IMG/VR virus record: IMGVR_UViG_3300045988_122132
Reading direction: 5' to 3' (one strand)
Length of the DNA: 35,776 nucleotides
DNA from: a virus
Part shown: positions 3,848-35,276 of the stretch, in pieces
How the letters are laid out: the number at the start of each line of letters is the position of its first letter
Position numbering within the stretch: position 1 is the stretch's first letter
Program-made: the position numbers and the translations under genes
The notes under the pieces: generated by a model
What the model was told of the DNA's origin: nothing
What the model saw: the letters and a program-made list of their open reading frames with translations, nothing else
Database searches by the model: none

Positions 3848-3954
3848 AAAATCCGTGCAGATTGCCGCTGCACGGTACAAAGGAAAGGGAGCGAGATATA
3901 GCCGAACTACGCTCGCCCCTATTATATCATAAAATCACAAAGGGGGCAATGAAA

Positions 3955-5097
3955 ATGGCAAAGCAAAAAGACGGAAGATACCGTGCAAAAATAACCGTAG
4001 GCACGGACGCGAACGGCAAAAGCATAGTCAAGTATGTATCAGGGCGGACGAAAAAGGAGCTTGAAGCGGCTAAGGCGGCGGCGCGTGAAAAGTACATCAC
4101 GGGGGCAAACGCCGTGCCGGAGGGGATACTTTTTGACCGATACGCGCTAAGCTGGTATGAGGTGTATAAGCAGCCGCATATAGGCGTGTCCGCGCAAATG
4201 TCATACCGCACGGCACTATATAAGCATATCTTCCCCGCGTTGGCGGGGCGAAGGCTGACGGCAATCACCACGGAGGACTTGCAGCGGCTGCTGAACACCA
4301 AGGCCGACACGTGCGCCGCCATAATAGGCAACATATCTACAATCCTGCGCGGGGTATTTCAGCGGGCGTATAGTCAGGGGCTTATCCCGCGTGACATCAC
4401 GGTCGGGCTTACAATCCCGTCCAAGCCCAAGGAGACGCGCAGGGCATTAACGGACGCGGAGACGGATGCGGTTCTGCGCCTGATGGATGAGGACGGCACG
4501 CTAATGCTTGCCCTGCTGTACTACACGGGTATGCGCTACGGCGAGGCTTGCGGCCTGCAATGGCGGCACGTTGACTTCAAAGCGGGGACAATCCGCATAG
4601 AGCAGCAGGCGGCGGGCAAGACGGGGGAGATAGATGCACCCAAAACGGATAAGTCCGTGCGGACGATACCCATGCCGCGCGAACTGGCGGACAAGCTGCG
4701 CCCCGTGCGCGGGCTGCCGCAGTCGTATGTAGTGCCGTCGTCCACAGGGTCATATCACCGCAATGCGACGCGATACCGCCTATGGGACGACTTAATGGCG
4801 CGGCTGTACGATATCGCGCCGGAGATTGACGCGATTGAAAAGGGCGGGCGGATGATATCGGTCATAACCCCGCATTACCTTCGGCATAATTATGCCAGCG
4901 TGCTGTATAACGCGGGCGTGGACGTGCTTTCCGCCCAAAGATATTTAGGCCACGCTAACGCAAAAATCACCCTCGAAATTTATTCACACCTTTCGGCACA
5001 GAAGGAAAAATACAGTGCAGAGCAGTTACAGGGCGCGTTTGAGAAAAGTTGCCGTAAAGTTGCCAGTCCCAAAGCGCACGGCAACGGCGGCAATTAA
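3955..5097 (+). CDS. int: Tyrosine recombinase (phage integrase) with N-terminal arm-binding domain
   Basis: The catalytic pattern is present: TGMRYGEACGLQW (R), HYLRHNYAS (HxxR) and LGHANAKITLEIYSH (H...Y). N-terminus DGRYRAKITVGTDANGKSIVKYVSGRTKKELE. The ATG at 3955 has better spacing from GGGGG than the ATG at 3949. Confidence 0.9.
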   Translation: MAKQKDGRYRAKITVGTDANGKSIVKYVSGRTKKELEAAKAAAREKYITGANAVPEGILFDRYALSWYEVYKQPHIGVSAQMSYRTALYKHIFPALAGRRLTAITTEDLQRLLNTKADTCAAIIGNISTILRGVFQRAYSQGLIPRDITVGLTIPSKPKETRRALTDAETDAVLRLMDEDGTLMLALLYYTGMRYGEACGLQWRHVDFKAGTIRIEQQAAGKTGEIDAPKTDKSVRTIPMPRELADKLRPVRGLPQSYVVPSSTGSYHRNATRYRLWDDLMARLYDIAPEIDAIEKGGRMISVITPHYLRHNYASVLYNAGVDVLSAQRYLGHANAKITLEIYSHLSAQKEKYSAEQLQGAFEKSCRKVASPKAHGNGGN

Positions 5098-6095: not shown

Positions 6096-6722
6096 TTAGC
6101 AGCAGCTATTGCCGCAGCCGCAGCCGGAGCCGCAAAACGGGCTATTCCCGGCGTTGTAAGTGTAGCCGTTGGGGTAGCGTACCACGCCCGTCAGCTGCTC
6201 GCGCACAAACAGCTGGTTATTAGCCTGCTCAAGCTGGGCTATGCGCTGCTCAAGCTGCGCCTTTTCGAGCGCCGCGAATTTTGCGTCGATGTTGGCGTTG
6301 ATGGCATCCATGCCACGCTGTACGGCGCAGCAGCACTCCGCCATCTGGGACTGTATGCCGTTCGCGGACTGCATCACGGTCATATTCGTGCCGTTCTGCG
6401 CGAGGGCCATTTCCTTCCCAAGCTGGCCGATATTGCCCTGCATATCGTAGCCAAGGCTGCATATGCCGTTGCCAATGTTGGTCAAGCGGTCATTAAGCTG
6501 GCCAAAATGCTGGCCGAAAAGGATTTCCTGCTGCGTCGCTGCGGTCGCGTACTGGCCGTAGTCACCGTTGCCACGGTTGCCCCAGCCGCCAAAGCCTCCG
6601 CCCATCATAGCCAAAAGCACGATAAGAGCGAATATCCAAAAACCTCCGCCCATGCTGCCGCCAAGGCCGTCGTTTTTGTCCGTTACGGCGGCGATATCCG
6701 CCAAAGAGGGTACATTATCCAT
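6096..6722 (-). CDS. Cargo protein C: membrane-anchored Q/N-rich protein with C-terminal Cys cluster (hypothetical)
   Basis: 208 aa. A Gly-flanked TM helix GGGFWIFALIVLLAMMGGGFGGWG is followed by AECCCAVQ and a heptad-like segment LEKAQLEQRIAQLEQANNQL. The C-terminus is FCGSGCGCGNSCC. RBS GAAGGAGAAAGACAATG. Confidence 0.65.
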   Translation of the reverse strand: MDNVPSLADIAAVTDKNDGLGGSMGGGFWIFALIVLLAMMGGGFGGWGNRGNGDYGQYATAATQQEILFGQHFGQLNDRLTNIGNGICSLGYDMQGNIGQLGKEMALAQNGTNMTVMQSANGIQSQMAECCCAVQRGMDAINANIDAKFAALEKAQLEQRIAQLEQANNQLFVREQLTGVVRYPNGYTYNAGNSPFCGSGCGCGNSCC

Positions 6723-6774
6723 TGTCTTTCTCCTTCATAATTTTATTTTTTTTGGTATATAAATCGCGCGTGAT

Positions 6775-6990
6775 TTATCGTATCTGGGACAAGATGCTTT
6801 CTGGGTCTATACCTTTTTGCTGGCACAGGCTGTAAAACATCTGCTGGGGGTCACGCCCGCCGAGCATCCGCATTACCTGCTGCATTTGCGCGGGCATCCC
6901 CATCATGCTTTTGGCCTGGGCGATTAGCTGCGGAGATATTTGCGGGGTCTGCTGGCTTCCAGCTTTCATTGCTTGCAATATGGGATTCAT
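6775..6990 (-). CDS. Cargo protein B: small Q/M-rich protein (hypothetical)
   Basis: 71 aa. RBS GGAGGA lies 8 nt before the ATG, and a TAA sits immediately upstream in the same frame. Confidence 0.55.
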   Translation of the reverse strand: MNPILQAMKAGSQQTPQISPQLIAQAKSMMGMPAQMQQVMRMLGGRDPQQMFYSLCQQKGIDPESILSQIR

Positions 6991-7285
6991 TTAATTTATC
7001 CTCCAATTTTGATATTCGTGCCGCGAGGTCGTTAATGTCCACAGGCGGCGCCGGCTGATACGGCGTGATGGTGTACGGGGTTAGTGTAGGATACCCCGCG
7101 CTGTCGGTACACTTGTGCCAGACTATGGGCGCGGTGGTGTCCAGCAGCAGGATGCTGCTATTGGGCGCAAGGCTGTACGCCTTCGCCCCGCCCTCGCCAT
7201 TGACTTGGGGGACTTGGGCGCGCACGGGCTGCTGATACTGTTGGGGCTGCTGATAGCCGCCAAAAAAGGGATTGGGATTCCACAC
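6851..7285 (-). CDS. Cargo protein A: protein with Q/P/Y-rich N-terminus (hypothetical)
   Basis: GTG start with RBS ATAAGGAGGCGATAAAAGTG. The N-terminus is MWNPNPFFGGYQQPQQYQQP, and a heptad-like INDLAARISKLEDKLN follows. The last 140 nt overlap gene B in another frame. Confidence 0.55.
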   Translation of the reverse strand: MWNPNPFFGGYQQPQQYQQPVRAQVPQVNGEGGAKAYSLAPNSSILLLDTTAPIVWHKCTDSAGYPTLTPYTITPYQPAPPVDINDLAARISKLEDKLNESHIASNESWKPADPANISAANRPGQKHDGDARANAAGNADARRA

Positions 7286-7326
7286 TTTTATCGCCTCCTT
7301 ATGGCCTTATTTTCTCAAAAAATTAG

Positions 7327-7347
7327 CCCCGCGCCCTGTGCGCGGGG
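7327..7347 (-). terminator. Intrinsic-terminator-like hairpin in the leader of the cargo operon
   Basis: CCCCGCGC-cctgt-GCGCGGGG is an 8-bp stem. On the minus strand it is followed by CTAATTTTTTGAG, only about 40 nt before the gene A start. Confidence 0.5.
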
Positions 7348-7409
7348 AGGGAATTTACCGGGCATTTAATGAGCAAAAATATTTTTTCAAAAAAAGTATG
7401 CAAAACCCC

Positions 7410-7438
7410 TTGACGTAGGTATATACCTATGGTATAAT
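7410..7438 (+). promoter_or_regulatory. Accessory promoter P1 with palindromic operator in the spacer
   Basis: TTGACG (7410..7415), 17-nt spacer, TATAAT (7433..7438). The spacer contains the perfect palindrome TAGGTATATACCTA (7416..7429). Confidence 0.7.
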
Positions 7439-7489
7439 AAGGCCATAAGATAAAGCAAGGGGCCAAAGCCCCAGAGGGAGTTAAAAATC

Positions 7490-7909
7490 ATGAAGTACGA
7501 TGTAACATTTTCCTGCGGACACACTGCAACGATAGAGCTGTTTGGCCCCGGCAAAGAGCGCGAGCGCAAAATCAGCTGGTATGAGACGCACGGCGAATGC
7601 CCCGAATGCTACAAGGCTCGCAAGCAGGCAGAGCGCGAGGCGATTGACGCACAGGCGGCGCAGGAAAGCAAGGAAAAACAGTGGCCCGAACTGAGCGGAA
7701 CCCCGAAGCAGGTCGCATGGGCAAACGCAATCCGCAAGGAAAAGATAGATGAAATAATGGCCGTTGGCGCCAACGAAAACGGAATGCGCTGCATCGCATG
7801 GATTATACAGACCTATACCACGGCAAAATTTTGGATAGATAATCGTGACAGGTCATTGCGCGGCGAGTGGGGCCGCGAGGTAATCAACACTTATAATGCA
7901 ACAAAATAA
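7490..7909 (+). CDS. Zn-ribbon protein, paralog 1 (hypothetical)
   Basis: 139 aa starting MKYDVTFSCGHTATIELFG...GECPECYK. The N-terminal motif is shared with the next gene. RBS GGGAG. Confidence 0.65.
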   Translation: MKYDVTFSCGHTATIELFGPGKERERKISWYETHGECPECYKARKQAEREAIDAQAAQESKEKQWPELSGTPKQVAWANAIRKEKIDEIMAVGANENGMRCIAWIIQTYTTAKFWIDNRDRSLRGEWGREVINTYNATK

Positions 7910-7928
7910 AAAAGAAAAGGAGAACGCC

Positions 7929-8585
7929 ATGAAATACGAAATGGAATATGCCTGTGGGCATACCACTACGGTGGATTGCACGATGGACGACCGCGACCAC
8001 ATGCGCGACTTGATAGGCCGCACATTCTGCCCCGATTGCTGGGGTAGGATGTGCGCAAGCGGAGATTTTGTACCGATGCGCATGAGTTGCGCAGAGCGCG
8101 ACGCTGATTACTGGTCATGCAGAGCCAAGCCCGATAGCTATGACAGCAAGACCGATACCATAGTAATCAATGTGCATAAGGACTTGCTGCGAGAAAAGGC
8201 CGAGATCGCCGCGTTAAAGGTATCAAGCGCGGCCATAGAGGGCATGAGCGAGGTGCGTGCGGCAAAAAACGCATGGGACGACTATAAGGCCGCAATCAGG
8301 CATTGGCAATTTATAGACCATTGTGGATGTGAAAAACCGGAAGAGCCCGCCGTGAAAATGGCAGAGATAGAATCTAAATATCCCCGGGCAGCTGCATTTT
8401 TTACTGCGGAAGAATTTACGCGGGGTGTCGATATAGATAAATGCGTCGCAGGGCGCAGGGCGATGGAAAAGATTTTGCGCAGCGAGGACTATGCCGAGGC
8501 TATCAGGGGCATGGAAGCAGAGTGGGAGCCCTGGCCATCGTACAGCAAGCTTGTGGAGTGGATGAAAAATGAAAAAAGAGTTTGA
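7929..8585 (+). CDS. Zn-ribbon protein, paralog 2 (hypothetical)
   Basis: 218 aa starting MKYEMEYACGHTTTVDCT...FCPDCWG. RBS AAAAGGAGAACGCCATG. The track ORF start at 7896 lies inside the previous gene. Confidence 0.65.
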   Translation: MKYEMEYACGHTTTVDCTMDDRDHMRDLIGRTFCPDCWGRMCASGDFVPMRMSCAERDADYWSCRAKPDSYDSKTDTIVINVHKDLLREKAEIAALKVSSAAIEGMSEVRAAKNAWDDYKAAIRHWQFIDHCGCEKPEEPAVKMAEIESKYPRAAAFFTAEEFTRGVDIDKCVAGRRAMEKILRSEDYAEAIRGMEAEWEPWPSYSKLVEWMKNEKRV

Positions 8586-8763
8586 GCGGCAAGCCCGCTA
8601 CGACAAAAAAAGCACCAAGGGCATATACCTTAAGCTTAACATCGGCACAGATGGCGACATCCTCGCCCGTCTTGCCGATGTGCCCAGCACGCAAGGATAT
8701 ATCAAGGGCCTGATACGCGCCGACATAAAAAATCAAAAAATCAGCAAAAACCCCTTGACGTAG
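8569..8763 (+). CDS. Small ribbon-helix-helix-like (Arc/CopG-type) protein
   Basis: 64 aa. KGIYLKLNIGTDGDILARLADVPSTQGYIKGLIRADI fits a strand-helix-helix pattern. Its stop codon TAG lies within TTGACGTAG of promoter P2. Confidence 0.5.
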   Translation: MKKEFERQARYDKKSTKGIYLKLNIGTDGDILARLADVPSTQGYIKGLIRADIKNQKISKNPLT

Positions 8764-24491: not shown

Positions 24492-26045
24492 TCATATTAC
24501 GCGCAAGCCGCGCTGTTCGTATACGCTTCGTTTGGGTTCCAGTTTGACCGCCGCCGCCATTGCGTCTATAAGCGCGCACATGGGGTCAATTCGCTCGATG
24601 CTCTTGTTTTTCATCGGCTTGATGTTCTCGTTGCCGTCCTGCGCTACCACCACGTTGCCAAATGTCCAGCGCCCGCACGGGTTATGCTCGTGCGTTATCT
24701 CGCCGTCCAGCATCAGGCGCTCCAGCTCCTTCATTGCGGGGGACATTCCCGCCATTGTCTGTGGTATGGTTATAACCTTCTGCTGTGTTACTTCCTGCTG
24801 CATCAGCGGGCGCAGGGAATCAATTCGCCATTGGTCGGCAGCAATATACTTTACATTGTAGTCCAGCATCAGCTTATCAAGATAATTTGCTATATAGGCG
24901 TAGTCGACGCAGTTGCCGGGCGTTGCGTGCATATGCTCCGCTTTAACCCATCTGCCAAATGGTACATGGTCACGCTGCTCGCGTTCGCGCATATTGTCCT
25001 CCGGTATCCACGCATCCACAAAAAACCGCCATTCCGTCTGCTCCGGTAACGGCGGGAATAGCACCGCCACGCCCGTAAGGTCGGTTGTGCTTGATAGGTC
25101 GATACCTACATAGCACTCGCGCCCCAGCATATCGGATTTATGCCAGTCGCCTTCGGTATCGTCCCATAGCGTAATCGGCATCCACCCCGTGCGTTTCAGC
25201 GATATCCATTGATTCAGTCGCAGCCAGCGGAAAAGCTTCTCAGCCGCAGGGCTATTCCGCGCCTTTAATGCCTCGCTGCGCACATTCTCTATTTTTATCG
25301 ACACGCCGAGCGACGGATTAGCCAAATACCAATTAGCTTCGTCATATATATCTGCCGTCTCCGGAACGGTATATATTTTTGCGTAAAAGGTTGGGTCTAC
25401 AAGTTCGCCGCTTATAATTTTTGTGGCTATGTCGTGCTGCTCCCAGCCCACGCTTTTGCGGTCAGGGTCGTCGCCTGCCGTAGTGATGCACCAGATAAGC
25501 TGTTCGTCTCGCGCCGCGCCCGTGCCGAAGGTCAGCACGTCCCACAAGTCGCGCTTGGGGTGCGCGTGCAGCTCATCAATTATTACCACGGACGGGTTAA
25601 GTCCGTGCTTCGTGGCCGCTTCCGCCGAAAGCACCTTGAAGCGCGTATGCGTGCGGAGATTTAGCATCTCTTTCGTGCTGTCCTTGATTTTTATAATCTT
25701 TGATAGCACCTTGCTCTGTTCTACCATGCTCTTTGCCGCGTTAAATGCTATGGACGCTTGATTGCGGTCGGCTGCGCCGCAGTATATTTCGCCACCCGCC
25801 GCATCCATCACAAGATGGTAAAGACTGAGCGCGGCTATAAGCTCGGTTTTGCCGTTCTTCTTGGCTATCTCCAGATAACCCGTTCGATATTGGCGCTTCC
25901 CGTCCTCATTCACTGTGCCGTATACGGCATTTATAACGTCAATTTCCCACGGCAGCAGCACAAAAGGTTTCCCGTAAAAATCACCCGTATGCTTTAACGC
26001 CTGCACAAATTCTATAACCGCAAGCGCTTTTTTTGTGTCAACCAC
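24492..26045 (-). CDS. terL: Terminase large subunit
   Basis: Walker-A-like LEIAKKNGKTELIAA, Walker B VVIIDELH and a C-terminal nuclease fold region. The GTG start overlaps the TerS stop. Confidence 0.9.
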   Translation of the reverse strand: MVDTKKALAVIEFVQALKHTGDFYGKPFVLLPWEIDVINAVYGTVNEDGKRQYRTGYLEIAKKNGKTELIAALSLYHLVMDAAGGEIYCGAADRNQASIAFNAAKSMVEQSKVLSKIIKIKDSTKEMLNLRTHTRFKVLSAEAATKHGLNPSVVIIDELHAHPKRDLWDVLTFGTGAARDEQLIWCITTAGDDPDRKSVGWEQHDIATKIISGELVDPTFYAKIYTVPETADIYDEANWYLANPSLGVSIKIENVRSEALKARNSPAAEKLFRWLRLNQWISLKRTGWMPITLWDDTEGDWHKSDMLGRECYVGIDLSSTTDLTGVAVLFPPLPEQTEWRFFVDAWIPEDNMREREQRDHVPFGRWVKAEHMHATPGNCVDYAYIANYLDKLMLDYNVKYIAADQWRIDSLRPLMQQEVTQQKVITIPQTMAGMSPAMKELERLMLDGEITHEHNPCGRWTFGNVVVAQDGNENIKPMKNKSIERIDPMCALIDAMAAAVKLEPKRSVYEQRGLRVI

Positions 26046-26532
26046 CGTATTTGTTCAGATAGGCCGCCATTGGGTCGCTTTCTGCTTCCTTCTTGGCGGC
26101 TGCAACTCCCATCCTCGCGCGGCCTACTGGGGACAGGCACAACTGCTCCGCGTATTTCGCTATGTTCTGCCCCTCCCGCCGCATTATAGTAATATACGGG
26201 TTTTCTGCGGGTCTGCCGTCCGCATTCATATAGACCAGCGGGCGGTTCTGGTATTCCTCTTGCGCCCTGCGGTATATTGCTACGCTTTCGCAGTACGCCA
26301 TAAGGGTCGATATGTCCAAGTCATTGATTATCTTCGCGTCAAGCTGGCGATACAGCTTAACTATGCGTTTCCACTCTTTTTTCGCCTCGCTTGATATGGT
26401 TTTGGGCGGCGTTAATTTATCGGTACAGCCTTCCGGTTCGCCATTCTGTCGCCCGTCAAGCGTTTCTTTTGTGTGCCTCGCCTTGGCGTTGTCCACCAGT
26501 TTCAGCGGGGTTGGTTTTCTCCCGGTCGGCAT
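26038..26532 (-). CDS. terS: Terminase small subunit (P27-like)
   Basis: 164 aa starting MPTGRKPTPLKLVDNAKARHTKE, directly upstream of TerL. Confidence 0.75.
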   Translation of the reverse strand: MPTGRKPTPLKLVDNAKARHTKETLDGRQNGEPEGCTDKLTPPKTISSEAKKEWKRIVKLYRQLDAKIINDLDISTLMAYCESVAIYRRAQEEYQNRPLVYMNADGRPAENPYITIMRREGQNIAKYAEQLCLSPVGRARMGVAAAKKEAESDPMAAYLNKYGG

Positions 26533-26550: not shown

Positions 26551-26697
26551 TTATTTGTGCCTATAGTATTCCTTGCGCTCGCGCAGCAGCCGTTTAAGAT
26601 ACTTCTGCGCGTCCCTGCGTGCACAGCCCGTGCTTTTGTCAATCCGTGCGCGGGCTTCTACTATCTTTTCGTTGTGTTCGTTTATTGCTTTATTCAT
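26551..26697 (-). CDS. Small basic helical protein (48 aa, hypothetical)
   Basis: Encodes MNKAINEHNEKIVEARARIDKSTGCARRDAQKYLKRLLRERKEYYRHK. Its start overlaps the radical SAM stop by 8 nt. Confidence 0.4.
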   Translation of the reverse strand: MNKAINEHNEKIVEARARIDKSTGCARRDAQKYLKRLLRERKEYYRHK

Positions 26698-28027
26698 ATT
26701 TGCGTGTCCATAGCCTTTCTACTTGCGCGTATGTGCGCAGATATCGGCTCGGCAAGTCCGCGGGGGTAAAGCCGCCGAAAAGTTTATCCATGTCAAACAG
26801 CTTAGCTAACACGGCCTCTTTCTCCGCGTTGCTTGCCCGCCAGAACTTCGGTGCACGGCACAGGCGTTCTATGTTTTCGCTATCGTTCTCGCTTCCCCTG
26901 TGTGCTAATGCGGATAGCATGACGGTCGGCAAGCCTTCTGTTCCGCTGCTTTCGACTGACCATAAGGATTTGCCTTGATATATCAGATTGCCTTTTAGTC
27001 CATTCCCAATCGTCCGGGATATTTCACCCCTAAAGTTACGCTTTGCCATCGGCGCACACGCCATAGGCGTGGCGGGCATTGCCCTGAACGGCGTGTTATG
27101 CAGGACAATAGACCATTGTTTTTCGCGTTTCTCCGCTATATCATCCGCAAGTCTTATATCCTCGGCAAACTCGCGCCAATCATCCTCTGTTTCAGACGGA
27201 TAGCCGCAAATGTTGAAAAACTTGATTTGATGTGGCTTGCCGCTGTAATTAAGCATGGCGCTCAGAAATTGCCGCAGGTTCTCACGCGTTATGGGTTTGT
27301 TCACCATTTTGCGCAACCGCTCGCTGAATCCGTCTATGGCCGTTGTACGCAAATGTGCCCAGTCTATTTCCTCTTTCCCGTTTATCATATCAAGCATGGC
27401 GCGTTCCTTATCTTCCATGCCGTCAAACAAGCCGCCGGGCATTTTGTATACGTCGCCCAGGGACGATATGAATTTTCGCTGCCATGTATAGCCGCAAAAA
27501 AAGCATTTGTGGTTGCACCCTATTGCCCGTTCTATGTATTCCTTCTTGTCGGTCAAACGTATCCGGTGTGGGTATATACAATCCGTTTGCGCCACTCTAT
27601 ATATTTTGTCAGGCGAAAAGGTTCTAACATCTATTACGCTTTCGTGGTCGTATCCGCCGTCGCGTTCTATGCCATCGATAAGCGGGGTCATAATGTGTTC
27701 GCCGCGTCCTATTACTGCAAAGTCGAACCAGCGCAGGAATGGCGTAACGTGCAATACGCCCGCCCCGCCGACAATAACCTTGTAATTGCCTTTGCGCCAT
27801 CTCACACGCTCCTTGACAAATGTCCACCAGTCGCAATCGCTTGTAAGGCTAACCAGCACTATATCATATTCATGCACCGTGGCTATTCCGGCATACTCTA
27901 CGCTATGCCCTGTGCGTTCCAAGCTGTCTATTATCACTTTTAGCCCGGCAAACTGGCGCGTATCTAAGCACTCTTTCTTATATGCCGTCTTTGCGTATTG
28001 TTCTTGTACGTATGCACATATCCTCAT
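26690..28027 (-). CDS. Radical SAM enzyme with B12-binding-like N-terminal domain (function unknown)
   Basis: CX3CX2C cluster motif in AIGCNHKCFFCGYTW. The N-terminal Rossmann-like segment is YDIVLVSLTSDCDW...KVIVGGAGV. I prefer the ATG at 28027, just after the ParB-like stop, over the 471-aa track ORF. Confidence 0.8.
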   Translation of the reverse strand: MRICAYVQEQYAKTAYKKECLDTRQFAGLKVIIDSLERTGHSVEYAGIATVHEYDIVLVSLTSDCDWWTFVKERVRWRKGNYKVIVGGAGVLHVTPFLRWFDFAVIGRGEHIMTPLIDGIERDGGYDHESVIDVRTFSPDKIYRVAQTDCIYPHRIRLTDKKEYIERAIGCNHKCFFCGYTWQRKFISSLGDVYKMPGGLFDGMEDKERAMLDMINGKEEIDWAHLRTTAIDGFSERLRKMVNKPITRENLRQFLSAMLNYSGKPHQIKFFNICGYPSETEDDWREFAEDIRLADDIAEKREKQWSIVLHNTPFRAMPATPMACAPMAKRNFRGEISRTIGNGLKGNLIYQGKSLWSVESSGTEGLPTVMLSALAHRGSENDSENIERLCRAPKFWRASNAEKEAVLAKLFDMDKLFGGFTPADLPSRYLRTYAQVERLWTRKYE

Positions 28028-28028
28028 G

Positions 28029-28499
28029 CTATACCTCAAACACAAATCCGCACTTAGGACATTTAACAGGCTCTTTTTCATTACTGCCGCCGTCCCCGCA
28101 ATCAAGCAATGAATCCACGTCCACCGCCTCTATCTCGTCGAAGCCGAACTCCGTCATGTCAAACCCCGTCAGGCCGTCCATCTCTGCGGGCAACAAATTC
28201 CAATCCCATTCGGCAAGCTCGCCCACCTTGTTGTCGGCAAGGCGGTACGCCTTGACCTGTTCCGGCGTTAGGTCGCTTGCCACTACGCACGGCACTTCGT
28301 CTAACCCATTTTTCTTGGCCGCCTTTAGCCGTGTATCTCCCGCGATTACTTCGTCGTTAACGTCAATCACTATGGGCTGCTTAAATCCAAAGGCCTTAAT
28401 GCTTGCCGCTACCGCGTCAACCGCCTTGTCGTTCTTGCGCGGGTTGTTCTTGTACGGCTTCAGCTCCGCAACCTTTCTCATCACAATCTGGCTATCCAT
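28029..28499 (-). CDS. ParB-like nuclease-domain protein with C-terminal zinc ribbon
   Basis: LKPYKNNPRKNDKAVDAVAASIKAFGFKQPIVID...GDTRLKAAKKNGL is a ParB N-terminal domain pattern. The C-terminus carries CPKCG. Confidence 0.8.
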   Translation of the reverse strand: MDSQIVMRKVAELKPYKNNPRKNDKAVDAVAASIKAFGFKQPIVIDVNDEVIAGDTRLKAAKKNGLDEVPCVVASDLTPEQVKAYRLADNKVGELAEWDWNLLPAEMDGLTGFDMTEFGFDEIEAVDVDSLLDCGDGGSNEKEPVKCPKCGFVFEV

Positions 28500-28902
28500 T
28501 TATCCCATATGCTCCCTTCAACTTTTTATGTCCCTTCACGCTGTTGCAATGTATGCACGCAGGCTGATGGTTGGTCGTGTCCCAAAACTTTGGGTCGCTC
28601 GCGCCGTCGGGCGGGTCAATGTGGTCAACGCATTGCGCCACAATCGCACAGCCATCGTCCAGCCGCAGGGCGCAAAGCTGGTTCTCCGGTCGGGATAAAA
28701 ACCACTTTGAATATCTGTCCCATCGTGCATCGTACCCGCGTTCCCGCGACGTGCCGCGCCTGCCGTCGCGCCTGCGCAGCTGTTCAAGTTTTTTCTCGCG
28801 TTCCGCTGCTTCGCCCGCCTCGCGGTGGTCGGCGCAATATTTGTCGGTCGTGACATTGTTGCAGTTAGGCCATGCGCAGAAGTGCGCCGGTTTCTGCGCC
28901 AT
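28492..28902 (-). CDS. HNH endonuclease
   Basis: CVDHIDP...NHQPACIHCNSVKG is an HNH motif. The N-terminus has a Cys/His cluster. The location is packaging-proximal. Confidence 0.8.
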   Translation of the reverse strand: MAQKPAHFCAWPNCNNVTTDKYCADHREAGEAAEREKKLEQLRRRDGRRGTSRERGYDARWDRYSKWFLSRPENQLCALRLDDGCAIVAQCVDHIDPPDGASDPKFWDTTNHQPACIHCNSVKGHKKLKGAYGING

Positions 28903-28903
28903 T

Positions 28904-29017
28904 TTATCGCCGCCCCCTCCTTGCCGGATACGGGCACTCCTTCACCCCGCACCGCCTTTTACCCTTGTCATAGTGCTTGCACTCTTTACAGGTGGCGGGT
29001 GTGTGTATCCACGTCAC
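28904..29017 (-). CDS. Tiny Cys-rich zinc-ribbon protein (37 aa, hypothetical)
   Basis: The GTG start overlaps the methylase stop (GGGTGACG). It encodes VTWIHTPATCKECKHYDKGKRRCGVKECPYPARRGRR and fills an otherwise non-coding gap. Confidence 0.3.
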   Translation of the reverse strand: MTWIHTPATCKECKHYDKGKRRCGVKECPYPARRGRR

Positions 29018-29856
29018 CCAAGCCGCCTTATTATTTCCTTTTCCCTCTCCGATAGCTCCCATATTTTTGCCCCTGCTTTCTCTGCTGCTGCTTTCTCTGC
29101 TGCTTTCTCTGCTGCTGCTTTCTCTGCTGCTGCTTTCTCTGCTGCTGCTTTCTCTGACAAGAGGAAGCCGCCGCCGAAAACCTTCTTTCCTGCGTCCCTT
29201 TGACTATCCAACGTGCTGATAAAGGCGCAATCCTCGGCGCGTATCCTTAACGACTGCCCGTATTTTGCAATGCGCTGTATTCTCGCCGCCGTCAGAACAT
29301 GGTCGTGGTACTCGTATTTCGGCAGCGACTTTGTAACCTTCTCGCGGTTTTCATCATCGGCCGCTTTTATTGCTTCATATAAGTCGGGCGCAACCATGAT
29401 TTTGTATTGCCCCATGTTTGTGGCAAAGCTCGTGTCTACGCTCGCGCCGTTATCGTACATTATCGATAGCCCGCATATGACATAATTTATACCGTCCAAG
29501 CCGCTGCCTGAAAAAATCGTTTTGGCGGGCCCGAAAAGAAAAAAGCGTATGCCGCGTTGATTGTACCAACGGCAGATCTCGGCAAAGATCGAAAAAGGCG
29601 GGTTGTCTATCACCGCACAATTCCCGCTGTAATCCTCTTTCTTGTAATCCCCGCCGGGGTAAAACGGGCGTATAATCCGCGCTCCCTCCAAGCCGTATTC
29701 CTTAACCGCCCAATCAAGAACGGCGGCATATACGTTATCGGGCGTGTAGCAATCATCCGTTGTTTTCTTCGGCTTGAATTTTTCAACGAATGCGGCATAT
29801 TCGCCCGTCATTTCCATCTGGTCGCCAAGCGCCATTTTCTCTTTGAAGCTGTCCAT
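29014..29856 (-). CDS. N6-adenine DNA methyltransferase (DNPPF motif) with C-terminal EKAAA repeat
   Basis: Catalytic motif IV VIDNPPFS, plus the TTDDCYTP region. The C-terminal low-complexity repeat is EKAAAEKAAAEKAAAEKAAEKAAAEKA. Confidence 0.75.
   Translation of the reverse strand: MDSFKEKMALGDQMEMTGEYAAFVEKFKPKKTTDDCYTPDNVYAAVLDWAVKEYGLEGARIIRPFYPGGDYKKEDYSGNCAVIDNPPFSIFAEICRWYNQRGIRFFLFGPAKTIFSGSGLDGINYVICGLSIMYDNGASVDTSFATNMGQYKIMVAPDLYEAIKAADDENREKVTKSLPKYEYHDHVLTAARIQRIAKYGQSLRIRAEDCAFISTLDSQRDAGKKVFGGGFLLSEKAAAEKAAAEKAAAEKAAEKAAAEKAGAKIWELSEREKEIIRRLG
29074..29156. repeat. Coding tandem repeat, 15-nt unit (one 12-nt unit)
   Basis: tgctgctttctctgc is iterated about 5.5 times and encodes (EKAAA)n on the minus strand. 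Confidence 0.85.
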
Positions 29857-29945: not shown

Positions 29946-30440
29946 TTATGGGGCAATGCGATTTATAAGCCGCTCCACGCCGTGCCGTTCTAAAGCCTTT
30001 GCCCAATCCTGCGACACGTGCATCCGCTGTGCCACCTTTTCCCAGTAGCCACTCTTCGCCACGCCATACTCCACATACCGCAGTTTTATCACCTCGCACT
30101 CCAGCGGCGGCAGACACATCACCTCGAACTCTATCATGCTCGCGTGATAATTCAGCTCTTGCAGCTCAGCTTCAAGGCGCTGCTTTTTTCGTTCAAGCCG
30201 CTTTATTTCGCGGGTGGCTTTTACCGCCGCATTGTATGTGGCATCAGATACCCCACTGCCGTGCGGCATACCCGTAAGGCGCTGCGGGTGAAGGTCGTAC
30301 TGGCTTTCAATCTCTTCGTCCACCGTCACAAGCTGCCGCTCCTTGTCCGTGCGCGTGCGCTCCGTGTTGCCCCAGTACATCAGCAGCCTCCTTACTGCCG
30401 CGCGTTCGTTTTGTCTCTTTTCCTTATCGCTTTTATCCAT
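29946..30440 (-). CDS. Late-gene transcriptional regulator (sigma-70 region-4-like, RinA/ArpU-like)
   Basis: 164 aa containing GMPHGSGVSDATYN, a coiled coil, and then LECEVIKLRYVEYGV...VAQRMHVSQDWAKALERHG (HTH). It lies upstream of the packaging genes. Confidence 0.6.
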   Translation of the reverse strand: MDKSDKEKRQNERAAVRRLLMYWGNTERTRTDKERQLVTVDEEIESQYDLHPQRLTGMPHGSGVSDATYNAAVKATREIKRLERKKQRLEAELQELNYHASMIEFEVMCLPPLECEVIKLRYVEYGVAKSGYWEKVAQRMHVSQDWAKALERHGVERLINRIAP

Positions 30441-30560: not shown

Positions 30561-31436
30561 CTAACCCCGCACAAATTCCGGGCACTGCCGCACATGGTAC
30601 GATTGCGTCGGCTTGTCGCTGTATAGCCGCGTCTCGTCTGCGTCCCAACCCTTGACGGGCTTAAAGCTCCTGCTCCATGAGCACCCGCGCTTGCCGCACT
30701 TATCCGGCACGGCATTGGCGCAAGACCAGCACAGTGACTGGGAGTATAGGGTCTTCGCGCAGGGGCTTGCGCCGTCATAATACCTATGCGCATCGCCTGT
30801 CGGCGCGCGAAGCGCCAAGTGCGCCATCATCCTGCGCAAGGTCGCGGTAGTCACGCCGATATGCTCGGCAATCTCCGTCCATTTCCCCCCCTGATTGCGC
30901 ATCTGCTTCACATCGTCCCAGCCTGGCCAGTCAGGGTAAAGCATTGCGTTTAATCTGTCGTACCTGCTGGGGCCGATGTCAATGCCACGCCTGCCCGCAC
31001 GCTTTTGCAGCGTTGGGCCACTTATGCCATACGGCTCCGCGATATCGCCCCATGTCTTGCCCGCCTCACGCTGCTTGCACACGTCATCCCAGTCCACTGG
31101 TGTCAGGGTGGGCTTGCGCACTAAGCGCGTATCTATGCCATGCTCTTGCGCGTAGCTGTGTAGCCGGTCACGCGATACATGATACTTCGCGGCTATGTCA
31201 GCCCATTTCATGCCCTCCGTGCGCAGACGCTGTATATCCTCTATGGACGGCAGTGAGTTATAGTCTGTGCGCCTTGGTATATCCACACCCGCCAGCCTTG
31301 CATACTTTGCCAGTGTGGTACCCGTTATGCCGTACAATTCACCCACTTGGTCAAGATTCGCGCCCGCCTCGCGCCGCCGCTTGATATCTTCCCAATCCGC
31401 CATGGTGATGTCGTTTATCGTCCGTATCTTTTTCAT
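30561..31436 (-). CDS. Protein with four tandem HTH modules and a C-terminal Cys-rich domain (hypothetical DNA-binding)
   Basis: Four repeats of the form W(E/D)D(I/V)xx(R/Q)(R)xxG..W..IAE.YG(I/V)(T/S)..TL..xA...GID. The C-terminus is CWSCANAVPDKCGKRGCSW...RQCPEF. Confidence 0.65.
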   Translation of the reverse strand: MKKIRTINDITMADWEDIKRRREAGANLDQVGELYGITGTTLAKYARLAGVDIPRRTDYNSLPSIEDIQRLRTEGMKWADIAAKYHVSRDRLHSYAQEHGIDTRLVRKPTLTPVDWDDVCKQREAGKTWGDIAEPYGISGPTLQKRAGRRGIDIGPSRYDRLNAMLYPDWPGWDDVKQMRNQGGKWTEIAEHIGVTTATLRRMMAHLALRAPTGDAHRYYDGASPCAKTLYSQSLCWSCANAVPDKCGKRGCSWSRSFKPVKGWDADETRLYSDKPTQSYHVRQCPEFVRG

Positions 31437-33256: not shown

Positions 33257-33850
33257 TTAATAATTTTTCACGGCCTCTTCGCGCGTGATGAAAAAATGTA
33301 TACCTGCCGCGCATTCGTGCCACCGGTTTTCGTCAAAATCTGGAGCCTCTGCGATTTCGCCGACACGGTAAACAAACCCTCTATCATGGTCGCTTGCGAC
33401 CTTGGTTAAGCCACTCGCGGAACCATCTGGATTAGTTATGCTCAGCACCTTCACCTTGCTACACCTGCATTTCCGTGTCGTCGAACTACTACGCTTCGCG
33501 TCCGCACAAATCTCCAACATGATAATTTTGCCCGCGGCTTTTTTATACCCGATAAACGCGCCTGCCTCAGGGCACTGTAGCGGGTAAAAGGCCGTGTGCG
33601 TATCCCATGCAACTTTGTCAACATTTCTGGCACCGTGCAGGTTGGCATTGCGCAGGTCGGCACCGCGCAGGTCGGCACCGTACAGGTCGGCACCGCGCAG
33701 GTCGGCACCGCGCAGGTCGGCACCGTACAGGTCGGCACCGCGCAGGTTGGCATTGCGCAGGTCGGCGCGTTCCCCGCCATCCTCACCTCTTGCCCATTTT
33801 GCGTGCTTATCGATGATTGCCTTTAATTTCGTATCGGATATTTTTTTCAT
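33257..33850 (-). CDS. Pentapeptide-repeat protein with globular C-terminal domain
   Basis: The N-terminal half is [46 protein letters not shown], matching the A(D/N)LXX repeat. An unassigned domain of about 120 aa follows. Confidence 0.8.
33637..33771. repeat. Nine contiguous 15-nt repeats (higher-order 45-nt unit) encoding the pentapeptide array
   Basis: gcaggtcggcaccgc-type units occur from 33637 to 33771. The variant order is mirror-symmetric: ttggcatt-type units at both ends and gt/ac variants inside. Confidence 0.9.
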
Positions 33851-34229
33851 TGTTTAGATACTCCTTTATCACTTTTATCGCCTCTTCCGCTCCCTTGCAA
33901 ACAACGGCCTTATAGCCTTGCTCCGCAAGCGCGGTTATCCAACTTTTTTGCGCCTCGCTCACCGTGCCGCCCTTTTGCCGTTTTAGCTCGATGTACAGGC
34001 CGTGATATCCTCCACGGCTCACGGGCAAGCACATATCCGGCACGCCTGACTTAACGCCCTGCGCTTTCAGCGCGATTGCGGTCTTGATTGCCCGCTTGCC
34101 GCCGTTGGGTATGGCGTACAGCAGCCCCAGTTCAGGGCGGGCGGCGGTCTCCATTGCCGCCCATTGAAAAATAATTCGCTGCTCTGCGTCCTCCAAGGGC
34201 ACGGTTGGCGGGGTATATGTGCGCCTCAT
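33807..34229 (-). CDS. VRR-NUC domain nuclease
   Basis: The PD-(D/E)xK pattern is GVPDMCLP...[11 protein letters not shown]. Confidence 0.75.
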
Positions 34230-34429
34230 CTTCTCCCTCCCCGTGCCTCAGCGGGTGCATGTGCATCCGCCTGATATATCGGCATTATCTTGCCGTCTAT
34301 CCGCATACGGACAAGCCCTCCGCGCTGGCATGCTGCACGGTATGCCCTGTACAGGTCTTGGCGGCTGGTAGCGGTGTACAGCACGTGTGCAATACCGCAG
34401 TTTATTTCGATTAGCTCAAATGTGTGCAT
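34226..34429 (-). CDS. Hypothetical protein (67 aa)
   Basis: ORF with overlapping start and stop codons on both sides. Confidence 0.45.
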   Translation of the reverse strand: MHTFELIEINCGIAHVLYTATSRQDLYRAYRAACQRGGLVRMRIDGKIMPIYQADAHAPAEARGGRR

Positions 34430-35276
34430 TGGTCGCCCTCCAATTTTTGGCCTTATCGCGCCCTATGTTGTGGCAGTTTTCTCCCGCGTATTCGCGGATT
34501 CTGCCGCCTATGGCCTCATCAATCGCAAAAATTTCGTCGATTGTCCGCTCGCTGGATATGATGGTGATTTTATTGCCCGCGTTGTAGCGGTAATTGATAA
34601 TTTCATACGCCAGCCGGATGTCTGCCGATGTAGGCTGGCTATTAACCCCCGTGGGCTTAAAAAGGTCGTCTATATACAGCACATCGACCGATTTCAGCGG
34701 CCACACAAGTCTTGCATACTGGTCATCATTTGCGCAGGCTTTTAGCCATGCCGCCTCATCTGTCCACAGCATATAGCGGGTGCTTTTGCTGCGGTTAATA
34801 AAGCTTACCGCCAAGGCCGTGCATATGTGCGTTTTCCCCGCGCCGCTCTGCCCGCCGACGAAGAAAAACCCCATATCAGCGTCGCTAAATCTCTCCGCGC
34901 TGGCCTTTATTGCTTTTTGCCAAGGCGTGGTTGCCTTGTATGCGCCAAAGGTGCAGCGGGCGGCAAGATGTGATAGCCCCGACGTTTTCAGCATTTGCCG
35001 AGACCGCCGAATTGTCATGCACGCGCATTCTCGTGATCCCGTCTCAAAGTTGGGGTATCCGTATCGCGCCGTGTTGTCTATGACAGTCTCGACAAAGCCC
35101 TTGTTATGGCATATCGGGCAGTCATAGCCTGTAAGCTTGCCCTCTTGCGCGTTTACCCTGTCGGCCATTTTCTGCGCCCGTGCGAGCTTTTCTTCCGCCG
35201 TCATCTCCGACAACGGCTTATGGTTAGTAGTAATGCCCAAGTGCGCTAAAGTCCTGAGTATTTGGCTTTGCTCCAT
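34416..35276 (-). CDS. DnaC/IstB-like AAA+ helicase loader with N-terminal zinc finger
   Basis: Walker A GGQSGAGKTH, Walker B VDVLYIDDL and N-terminal CPICHNKG. RBS AAAGGAGGACGAGCGCAATG. Confidence 0.85.
   Translation of the reverse strand: MEQSQILRTLAHLGITTNHKPLSEMTAEEKLARAQKMADRVNAQEGKLTGYDCPICHNKGFVETVIDNTARYGYPNFETGSRECACMTIRRSRQMLKTSGLSHLAARCTFGAYKATTPWQKAIKASAERFSDADMGFFFVGGQSGAGKTHICTALAVSFINRSKSTRYMLWTDEAAWLKACANDDQYARLVWPLKSVDVLYIDDLFKPTGVNSQPTSADIRLAYEIINYRYNAGNKITIISSERTIDEIFAIDEAIGGRIREYAGENCHNIGRDKAKNWRATNAHI

Follow-up and report, generated by a model that had tools for sequence, protein, structure and literature searches.

It has been reported that a phage thymine dioxygenase (5mYOX) cannot oxidise double-stranded DNA (dsDNA) unless its cognate ParB-like protein is present (PMC13229309), and that fusions of the ParB fold to DNA methyltransferases are enriched in phages (PMC12704722). 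Radical S-adenosylmethionine (SAM) enzymes of the thymidine hypermodification pathways in phages M6 and ViI act post-replicatively on DNA (PMC5889632, PMC8989533), and a further radical SAM enzyme, MgmA, is the cobalamin-dependent glutamine C-methylase of methyl-coenzyme M reductase, with its cobalamin held base-off in a Rossmann domain (PMC11796369). Here we describe a locus that joins a ParB-like gene to a radical SAM gene. It lies in the IMG/VR virus record IMGVR_UViG_3300045988_122132, a stretch of 35,776 nucleotides that was analysed as a whole (hereafter, the window) and that represents the ~36-kb genome of a temperate gut phage of the siphovirus type, with a long late operon on the minus strand. 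Judged by its conservation across loci, the functional unit is a two-gene cassette of a ParB-fold protein and a radical SAM enzyme, which we propose to be a DNA-modification module, expressed late, in a temperate phage that infects anaerobes. That the enzyme, assisted by ParB, modifies phage DNA before packaging is a tentative reading, to which we give nearly even chances.

The idea that ParB directs DNA-modification machinery is said to have been first proposed by Iyer et al. in 2013. Save for a possible mention in that paper, the pairing of ParB with a radical SAM enzyme is undescribed in the full-text literature that we searched, and the word 'radical' occurs nowhere in PMC12704722.

Conservation of the ParB and radical SAM gene pair

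From genome and viral collections we gathered 207 related loci, which reduced to 124 unique radical SAM genes, 113 of them with at least 450 nt of upstream sequence. A ParB-like open reading frame (ORF) lies directly upstream in 100 of these 113 unique loci, usually with an overlap of 4-20 nt onto the start of the radical SAM gene, and it is adjacent in four more (104/113 in total), one of which has the order swapped. A peptide of 70-73 residues stands alone upstream in 4/113 unique loci (the loci so described are L013, L035, L036, L066 and L067), and neither ParB nor this peptide is found upstream in 5/113. The pairing holds from 99% down to ~22% identity of the radical SAM protein, the distant subfamilies scoring 75-110 bits, and it spans hosts from Clostridia to Nitrospirota and Pseudomonadota. 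An earlier note on this DNA had proposed a search for co-occurrence with ParB-like genes, and the outcome was strongly positive.

The ParB-like protein of the window consists of a ParB N-terminal NTPase-fold domain, an acidic linker with a DLD-like motif, and the C-terminal sequence CPKCGFVFEV. Its PF02195 score of 39.9 bits (cutoff 26.3) places it in the ParB-CTPase fold, and conservation across 48 partner proteins covers N19 of the NPR box (NNPR) and, in the GxxR box (GDTR), both G54 and R57. It is not a canonical partition ParB: only the N-terminal domain matches (TIGR00180 gives 37 bits against a cutoff of 58), no helix-turn-helix (HTH) or HTH_ParB domain was found in it, and no ParA match was found among the 36 window ORFs scanned against Pfam, a set drawn mostly from outside the tail and lysis region at 9-23 kb. 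The protein also matches the N-terminus of phrog_498 ('DNA methyltransferase') and the PADLOC entry MTase_II, and it is 54-63% identical to the N-terminal domain, acidic linker included, of ParB-N6/N4 DNA methyltransferase fusions from cultured Lactobacillus, Streptococcus and Lactococcus phages. In Lactobacillus phage CR191 such a fusion (WFD52891) lies directly upstream of terS, terL and portal. Given this identity, the window ParB amounts to a fusion without its methyltransferase domain, followed by a radical SAM gene in the same pre-terminase slot, which agrees with the earlier suggestion that ParB had been split off from a methylase.

A CPKCG-type tail ends the ParB protein in 87 of the 100 loci with ParB directly upstream. 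In the near and middle subfamilies, CPKCG[F/C]x[F/W/Y] terminates every ParB partner, and in the near family the ending CPKCGFxFE(V) is 100% conserved, exceeding the ParB core. The conserved cysteine element of the locus is therefore this tail, which the earlier note overlooked when it singled out a separate 52-residue ORF. Because it holds a single invariant CxxC knuckle, the tail is not a full Cys4 zinc ribbon. We read it as an element through which this ParB subfamily couples to its effector or dimerises. The zinc hook of Rad50 has the motif CPxCG, and the ParB tail may resemble it.

The tail is not confined to radical SAM loci. A scan of IMG/VR for DNA encoding CPKCGFxFE found 62 sites, about 45 of them followed directly by a radical SAM gene. 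In a group of eight contigs of the L084 type a second ParB and a C5-cytosine methylase come after the tail-bearing ParB, and then HNH, TerL and portal; in L084 itself (6561-8734) the tandem ParB tails read CPKCGFEFEV and CPCCGFRFN, the C5-cytosine methylase is followed by a 138-residue ORF, an HNH gene (NUMOD), a T4-type TerL and portal, and the locus has no radical SAM gene. Tail-bearing ParBs also stand directly before a C5 methylase in L099 and before a Dam methylase in L102; the downstream terminase is established for the L084 group, and L099 and L102 are counted by their upstream ParB only. Since ParBs with the same tail precede C5 and Dam methylases instead of a radical SAM gene, the radical SAM gene occupies a DNA-methylase slot.

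A few CPKCGFxFE sites precede unknown proteins. Among individual tail-bearing loci, L121 (4070-4980) has a ParB ending in CPKCGFLFER and then a 303-residue protein with no Pfam match, which may be another alternative effector. In L160 (4950-6834) the radical SAM gene comes first and the ParB, with the tail CPKCGLQWAK, second. L100 has a tail-bearing ParB followed by a mere short radical SAM fragment and L111 has no radical SAM gene; both may be pseudogenes or assembly errors.

The conservation of the tail bears on a different account of the pair, in which the enzyme modifies a protein or peptide: the upstream-encoded tail CPKCGFxFEV itself, or a packaging or virion protein, as MgmA, Mmp10 and the radical SAM methylases of RiPPs (peptides made on ribosomes and modified after translation) do. 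The ParB domain would then be a carrier or 'leader' and modified ParB the functional product. We regard this as unlikely, although several points speak for it. MgmA, the closest solved relative, is a protein glutamine C-methylase (PMC11796369), and the tail is completely conserved, more so than the ParB core. In the five loci listed above, where the cassette sits between TerL and portal, the ParB domain has been lost and the directly upstream peptide (for example L035 5786-6004) retains an acidic 'VDLD' stretch and the ending HCPKCGLVFEV, in what looks like the layout of a precursor peptide; in addition, the tail weakly matches TIGR04165 'Cys-rich peptide' (E 0.01) and the enzyme weakly matches TIGR04013. 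Against a protein substrate, the same tail occurs on ParBs that precede DNA methylases, with no radical SAM gene in the ~5-10 kb of sequence covered at each such locus. Furthermore, the far radical SAM subfamilies keep the ParB domain with different, cysteine-free tails, so that the ParB domain, and not the tail, is the ancient constant, and a 95-residue NTPase-fold domain homologous to methyltransferase-fused domains would be an atypical leader.

The position of the cassette could also point to packaging. TerL was detected no more than 3 kb downstream in at least 37 of 89 loci, a minimum figure since no single TerL profile recognises all terminase families, and placement directly before terS and terL recurs. 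The pair might accordingly aid terminase recognition or processing, for example by marking pac or cos, or serve as a redox or SAM sensor that times late functions, with no genome-wide modification. The group with the cassette between TerL and portal fits such a role, as does the sequence-selective, partial modification reported for ParB-dependent dioxygenases (PMC13229309). We nevertheless consider a packaging or regulatory role very improbable: the cassette is missing from most phages of the same terminase types, and its carriers use several distinct families of terminase and of portal, a pattern to be expected if a mobile accessory cassette had been inserted where the late operon begins.

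Fold and family of the radical SAM enzyme

Single-sequence searches with the radical SAM protein fell short of the usual thresholds. The PF04055 (Radical_SAM) score was 27.5 bits against a cutoff of 29.5, the match to PF02310 (B12-binding) was below cutoff at E 9e-4, and the best NCBIfam scores were 23-38 bits against cutoffs of 250-460. No match was found in PHROG, PADLOC or PDB sequences, or by tblastn against 50,697 GenBank phage records; as the earlier note had stated, the protein is an orphan, outside every characterised family. Relatives are nevertheless numerous at metagenome scale: one protein database holds at least 522, of which the best 120 share 60-98% identity, and a profile search of 1.84 billion cluster representatives returned 1585 clusters (50% identity) at E<1e-3 and 185 at E<1e-30. 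The listed relatives are named 'hypothetical protein' only, and the one relative in BFVD is labelled only 'Fe-S oxidoreductase'. The contigs that bear the gene are prophages or viral contigs, binned to Clostridia (Oscillibacter, Onthomonas, Anaeromicropila), Collinsella, Bacteroidaceae, Hydrogenedentota, Pseudomonadota and Dissulfurispiraceae. The protein is thus a member of a large, unnamed, phage-restricted family.

The radical SAM assignment, weak from single-sequence hidden Markov models, is secure from the family profile and the structure model. C171, C175 and C178 are invariant in 105/105 diverse family members and are the sole conserved cysteines; E166, D232-G233, R239, K244, E279, D283, T320-P321 and R377 are conserved as well. 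In the Rossmann domain, conservation extends to S60 and, 27 residues further on, G87-G88, a spacing that matches the SxL...GG part of the cobalamin-binding signature, and to G107-R108-x-E110 (GRGE). The final AlphaFold (AF2) model, built on a 104-sequence alignment, has a predicted local distance difference test (pLDDT) score of 95.4; an earlier AF2 model, made from 20 close sequences, resolved the cluster loop poorly, and its fold match was weaker. The predicted architecture is a Rossmann (B12-binding-like) N-terminus, a partial TIM-barrel radical SAM core and an all-helical C-terminal domain, so that the CX3CX2C motif falls within the partial barrel that is typical of the superfamily.

Searched against PDB, the family profile matched MgmA (9ccb, E 6e-10) and then RimO (E 5.6e-5). 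Foldseek ranked MgmA first as well (E 5.9e-11, template modelling (TM) score ~0.5), followed by AprD4, MiaB bound to RNA, and RimO, and it placed local matches of the N-terminal domain on the corrinoid/B12-binding domains 1y80 and 8jbt. Together with the PF02310 match and the SxL...GG and GRGE conservation, these local matches uphold the B12-binding-like N-terminus that the earlier note had described. On the model, the protein appears closest to the class B methylases within a radical SAM clade that has an N-terminal Rossmann domain; its use of cobalamin is putative.

Several other assignments were rejected. C4, C65 and C324, invariant in close relatives, had prompted the idea of a methylthiotransferase-like enzyme with an auxiliary cluster; these residues, like C20, are not conserved family-wide over the 105 members, and the C-terminal domain is all-helical. 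A SPASM/twitch peptide maturase was ruled out by the lack of conserved cysteines beyond CX3CX2C. With the CX3CX2C cysteines alone conserved there is no auxiliary cluster, and both methylthiotransferase and SPASM/twitch chemistry are excluded. Also discarded was a zinc or Fe-S site to which the CxxC tail of ParB and enzyme cysteines would both contribute, since the subfamilies that keep the tail have no conserved extra enzyme cysteines.

Known phage pathways were set aside on two grounds. The radical SAM protein has no Pfam, NCBIfam or PHROG match to the QueE/7-deazaguanine, NrdG, viperin-like or thymidine hypermodification families, and, as the earlier note had held of partner genes, no queC/D/E, dpdA, nrdD, nrdG, viperin-like or hydroxymethylase gene occurs among the window ORFs scanned. 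The window has no genes of a precursor pathway, so a modification, if one is made, must be post-replicative and on canonical DNA. A catalogued defence or anti-defence system was likewise ruled out, the protein having no PADLOC match.

The fold matches to AprD4, with a small-molecule substrate, and to MiaB, with an RNA substrate, speak for another reading. Free nucleotides, RNA or small molecules could be the substrate of a viperin- or OxsB-like transformation, or the enzyme could destroy an immune signal or deplete SAM, with ParB supplying or sensing a nucleoside triphosphate (NTP) and the whole having an anti-defence or metabolic role. The enzyme has no detected DNA-binding domain, and the ParB fold binds CTP, ATP or GTP (PMC12704722), both in keeping with such a substrate. 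We find this quite unlikely, however, because no PADLOC or other anti-defence family is matched, and the equivalence to a DNA-methylase slot and the homology of ParB to methyltransferase-fused domains point to DNA. SAM depletion in particular would need neither a conserved partner nor a three-domain enzyme of 445 residues.

ParB-assisted modification of phage DNA as the proposed function

The locus is best filed, from its gene content, as a ParB-assisted phage DNA-modification module with a putatively unprecedented class of effector: an HTH-less ParB-fold protein adjoins an enzyme of a modifying class, and the two are conserved as a cognate pair. In the mechanism that we propose, the minimal ParB would be a loader or activator that brings the enzyme onto the double-stranded phage DNA, and the ParB domain of ParB-methyltransferase fusions is presumed to load likewise. 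The [4Fe-4S] cluster and SAM would generate a 5'-deoxyadenosyl radical, with cobalamin possibly bound in the N-terminal Rossmann domain, and a canonical base or sugar would be altered in replicated DNA just before packaging. The benefit would be progeny DNA that is likely shielded from host nucleases. By analogy with MgmA, to which the enzyme is closest, C-methylation by a cobalamin-type mechanism would be the most likely chemistry.

ParB-assisted post-replicative modification is the best supported reading because of the replacement of the methyltransferase domain seen against the fusions, the C5/Dam slot, and the precedents of the ParB-dependent thymine dioxygenase and the fusion survey. From these we infer a DNA substrate and an activating role for ParB, and, from the fold, cobalamin use and methylation. 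A more ambitious version, in which the pair would be the first radical SAM system, probably cobalamin-type, to put a primary modification directly on a canonical base or sugar of phage dsDNA, is doubtful as a whole. It would entail a C-alkylation beyond classical methyltransferases that gives an uncatalogued product, a ParB that is an NTP-gated loader, and a CxxC tail that is a Rad50-hook-like zinc element dimerising ParB or docking the enzyme.

A number of points weigh against DNA modification by this enzyme. The DNA substrate is something that we infer, and MgmA, the closest solved homologue, methylates a protein. The structural match to MgmA is moderate (TM ~0.5), and other class B methylase structures are absent from the significant Foldseek matches. 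The second-best match, AprD4, is a radical SAM dehydratase that has a B12-like domain but binds no cobalamin there, so that a B12-like fold need not mean cobalamin dependence. No recognisable DNA-binding domain was detected in the radical SAM protein, which is mildly basic (isoelectric point 8.4). A terminase-proximal position is common to many unrelated phage accessory genes. Finally, the loci with the tail alone look as if the enzyme itself needs the tail, as a substrate or a structural element; a simple loader model does not account for them, and they are the chief support for a protein substrate.

Phages counter restriction-type defences mainly by modifying their DNA, and such modifications have been a source of many biotechnology enzymes. 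To our knowledge, all known primary post-replicative base modifications are made by classical methyltransferases, dioxygenases, transglycosylases or Mom-like enzymes. A large, phage-restricted, ParB-tied family in a DNA-methylase slot is therefore a concrete, cloneable candidate for new DNA chemistry. Such chemistry would suit phages whose hosts are anaerobic bacteria of gut and sediment, a setting in which oxygen-dependent dioxygenases cannot act. If true, it would extend the recent principle that ParB-fold proteins activate DNA-modifying enzymes, and the minimal ParB (~155 residues) would offer a model for studying how activation works. If the ParB tail proved to be the substrate instead, viruses would have in this pair an unusual radical SAM system for modifying protein, which would likewise be new. 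A near-obligate and widespread ParB-radical SAM pair would surprise a specialist, and the possible new DNA chemistry is directly testable.

The gene neighbourhood and comparison with known systems

On the minus strand of the window, the order of transcription is methyltransferase-like gene, Cys-rich ORF, HNH, ParB-like gene, radical SAM gene, 48-residue ORF, TerS, TerL and portal, and the genes named in the earlier note all lie on that strand where it had put them (Table 1). The HNH and ParB reading frames share 8 nt. A 1-nt gap, with GAGG upstream, separates the ParB stop codon from the radical SAM ATG, and the radical SAM stop codon shares nucleotides with the ATG of the 48-residue ORF (ATGAATAA); the tight coupling of the radical SAM gene to both its flanking genes, also part of the earlier note, is thus borne out. 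An 18-nt spacer with a ribosome-binding site lies between the 48-residue ORF and TerS. No terminator-like sites were found on the coding strand from 31600 to 24000, and a promoter scan gave a result at chance level. The close and overlapping genes and the lack of a terminator-like site over that interval are consistent with co-transcription of the cassette alongside the packaging genes.

Table 1. Features of the window, with positions counted from its first letter.
Feature	Position	Strand	Remarks
Tyrosine integrase	3862-5097		
TerL	24492-26045	-	PF03354 and PF20441; phrog_9 E 5e-156
TerS, P27 family	26038-26532	-	PF05119 E 2e-20; phrog_83
Basic ORF, 48 aa	26551-26697	-	between radical SAM gene and TerS
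Radical SAM protein, 445 aa counted from ATG	26690-28027	-	
CX3CX2C [4Fe-4S]/SAM motif, C171, C175, C178 (residues 171-178)	27494-27517	-	GCNHKCFFCGYTW
N-terminal Rossmann-like domain of radical SAM protein, residues 1-125	27653-28027	-	PF02310 E 9e-4; PF19864 E 1e-3
ParB-like protein, 156 aa	28029-28499	-	PF02195 E 4e-10; phrog_620 E 8e-53
ParB C-terminal tail CPKCGFVFEV, residues 147-156	28032-28061	-	single CxxC knuckle
ParB_N (ParB-CTPase fold) domain, residues 7-84	28248-28481	-	Pfam
HNH endonuclease	28492-28902	-	phrog_144 E 9e-21
Cys-rich ORF, 52 aa	28904-29062	-	no family match
Methyltransferase-like protein, 280 aa	29014-29856	-	DNPPF motif; phrog_21498 ('unknown function')

The genes around the cassette are variable. 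The methyltransferase-like protein has no Pfam match, and a few phage records (Porphyromonas, Bacteroides, Eggerthella) give its homologues the annotation methyltransferase. Its gene is absent from three relatives that are 98% identical to the window (L018, L020, L023), and in two others (L019, L021) an extra ~700 bp separates the Cys-rich ORF from HNH; the region just upstream of the cassette looks like a hot spot for accessory-gene exchange. Where the methyltransferase-like protein has relatives they are 88-96% identical, against 97-100% for the neighbouring genes, and a 15-nt tandem repeat of 5.8 copies at 29073-29156 encodes an (AAEKA)n low-complexity stretch near its C-terminus. The 3' end of this gene shares 49 nt with the Cys-rich ORF. 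Residues 16-52 alone of the Cys-rich ORF are conserved in close relatives that lack the methyltransferase-like gene, so its true start is probably internal.

Downstream of the cassette, the 48-residue ORF is limited to loci 97-99% identical to the window; in other phages the radical SAM gene is directly followed by TerS or a different gene. HNH stands ahead of ParB in some phages, whereas in others it comes after the radical SAM gene. An HNH gene beside a P27-family TerS is a well-known packaging arrangement of HK97-like cos phages. The methylase, Cys-rich ORF, HNH, ParB and radical SAM genes were accordingly rejected as a single system, given the presence and absence variation in close relatives and the varying order in distant ones, and the block of methylase, zinc ribbon, HNH and ParB genes on which the earlier note had built does not hold as a functional unit: the methylase-like gene comes and goes, and HNH goes with the terminase.

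Elsewhere in the window, the genes encode an HTH repressor-like protein, a DnaC/IstB-like loader, a VRR-NUC nuclease, and sigma-like and multi-HTH regulators. Directly upstream of the cassette region, positions 29946-30440 encode a 164-residue sigma-70 region-4 / Pam3 gp33-like protein, and a 291-residue protein at 30561-31436 has at least four repeated resolvase-type HTH_7 motifs; both are probably late-gene regulators. In the early region, a pentapeptide-repeat and DUF5758 protein (33257-33850) adjoins the VRR-NUC nuclease (33807-34229) and the DnaC/IstB-like ATPase (34416-35276). DNA mimicry is frequent among pentapeptide-repeat proteins.

Of the phage radical SAM enzymes that act on DNA, those of M6 and ViI belong to pathways that need a 5-hydroxymethyldeoxyuridine (5-hmdU) precursor, a kinase and pyridoxal phosphate (PLP) enzymes, none of which is present among the window ORFs scanned. 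No sequence relationship of the window enzyme to the M6 and ViI enzymes was detected, and it has no PHROG match. MiaB and RimO are nearer: they share with it an N-terminal flavodoxin-like domain and a radical SAM core, they give significant fold and profile matches, and MiaB modifies a nucleic-acid base. The window enzyme differs from both in having neither the three N-terminal auxiliary-cluster cysteines nor a TRAM domain.

The best profile and fold match is MgmA (QCMT, 9ccb). Like the window enzyme, it has a Rossmann N-terminus, a partial-barrel core with CX3CX2C and a C-terminal domain, and the two share GxGE and GYPxET-type motifs. They are ~16% identical, and MgmA is archaeal with a protein substrate; the phage family is set apart by its all-helical C-terminal domain, its obligate ParB partner and its place in a phage late operon.

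For the arrangement of the pair, the ParB-N6/N4 methyltransferase fusions (CR191 WFD52891; phrog_498) offer one parallel, since the ParB domain with its acidic linker and the slot before terS are common to them and the window. Their effector is a fused classical SAM methyltransferase, whereas in the window the ParB ends in CPKCG and the effector is a separate radical SAM protein. The other parallel is 5mYOX and its ParB, where an HTH-less ParB-fold protein also lies beside an enzyme as two separate, cognate-specific genes. The ParB of 5mYOX has a C-terminal dimerisation domain where the window ParB has a CxxC tail, and 5mYOX is an Fe(II)/2-oxoglutarate dioxygenase that needs oxygen, whereas the effector in the window, found in phages that infect anaerobes, is a radical SAM enzyme and oxygen-sensitive.

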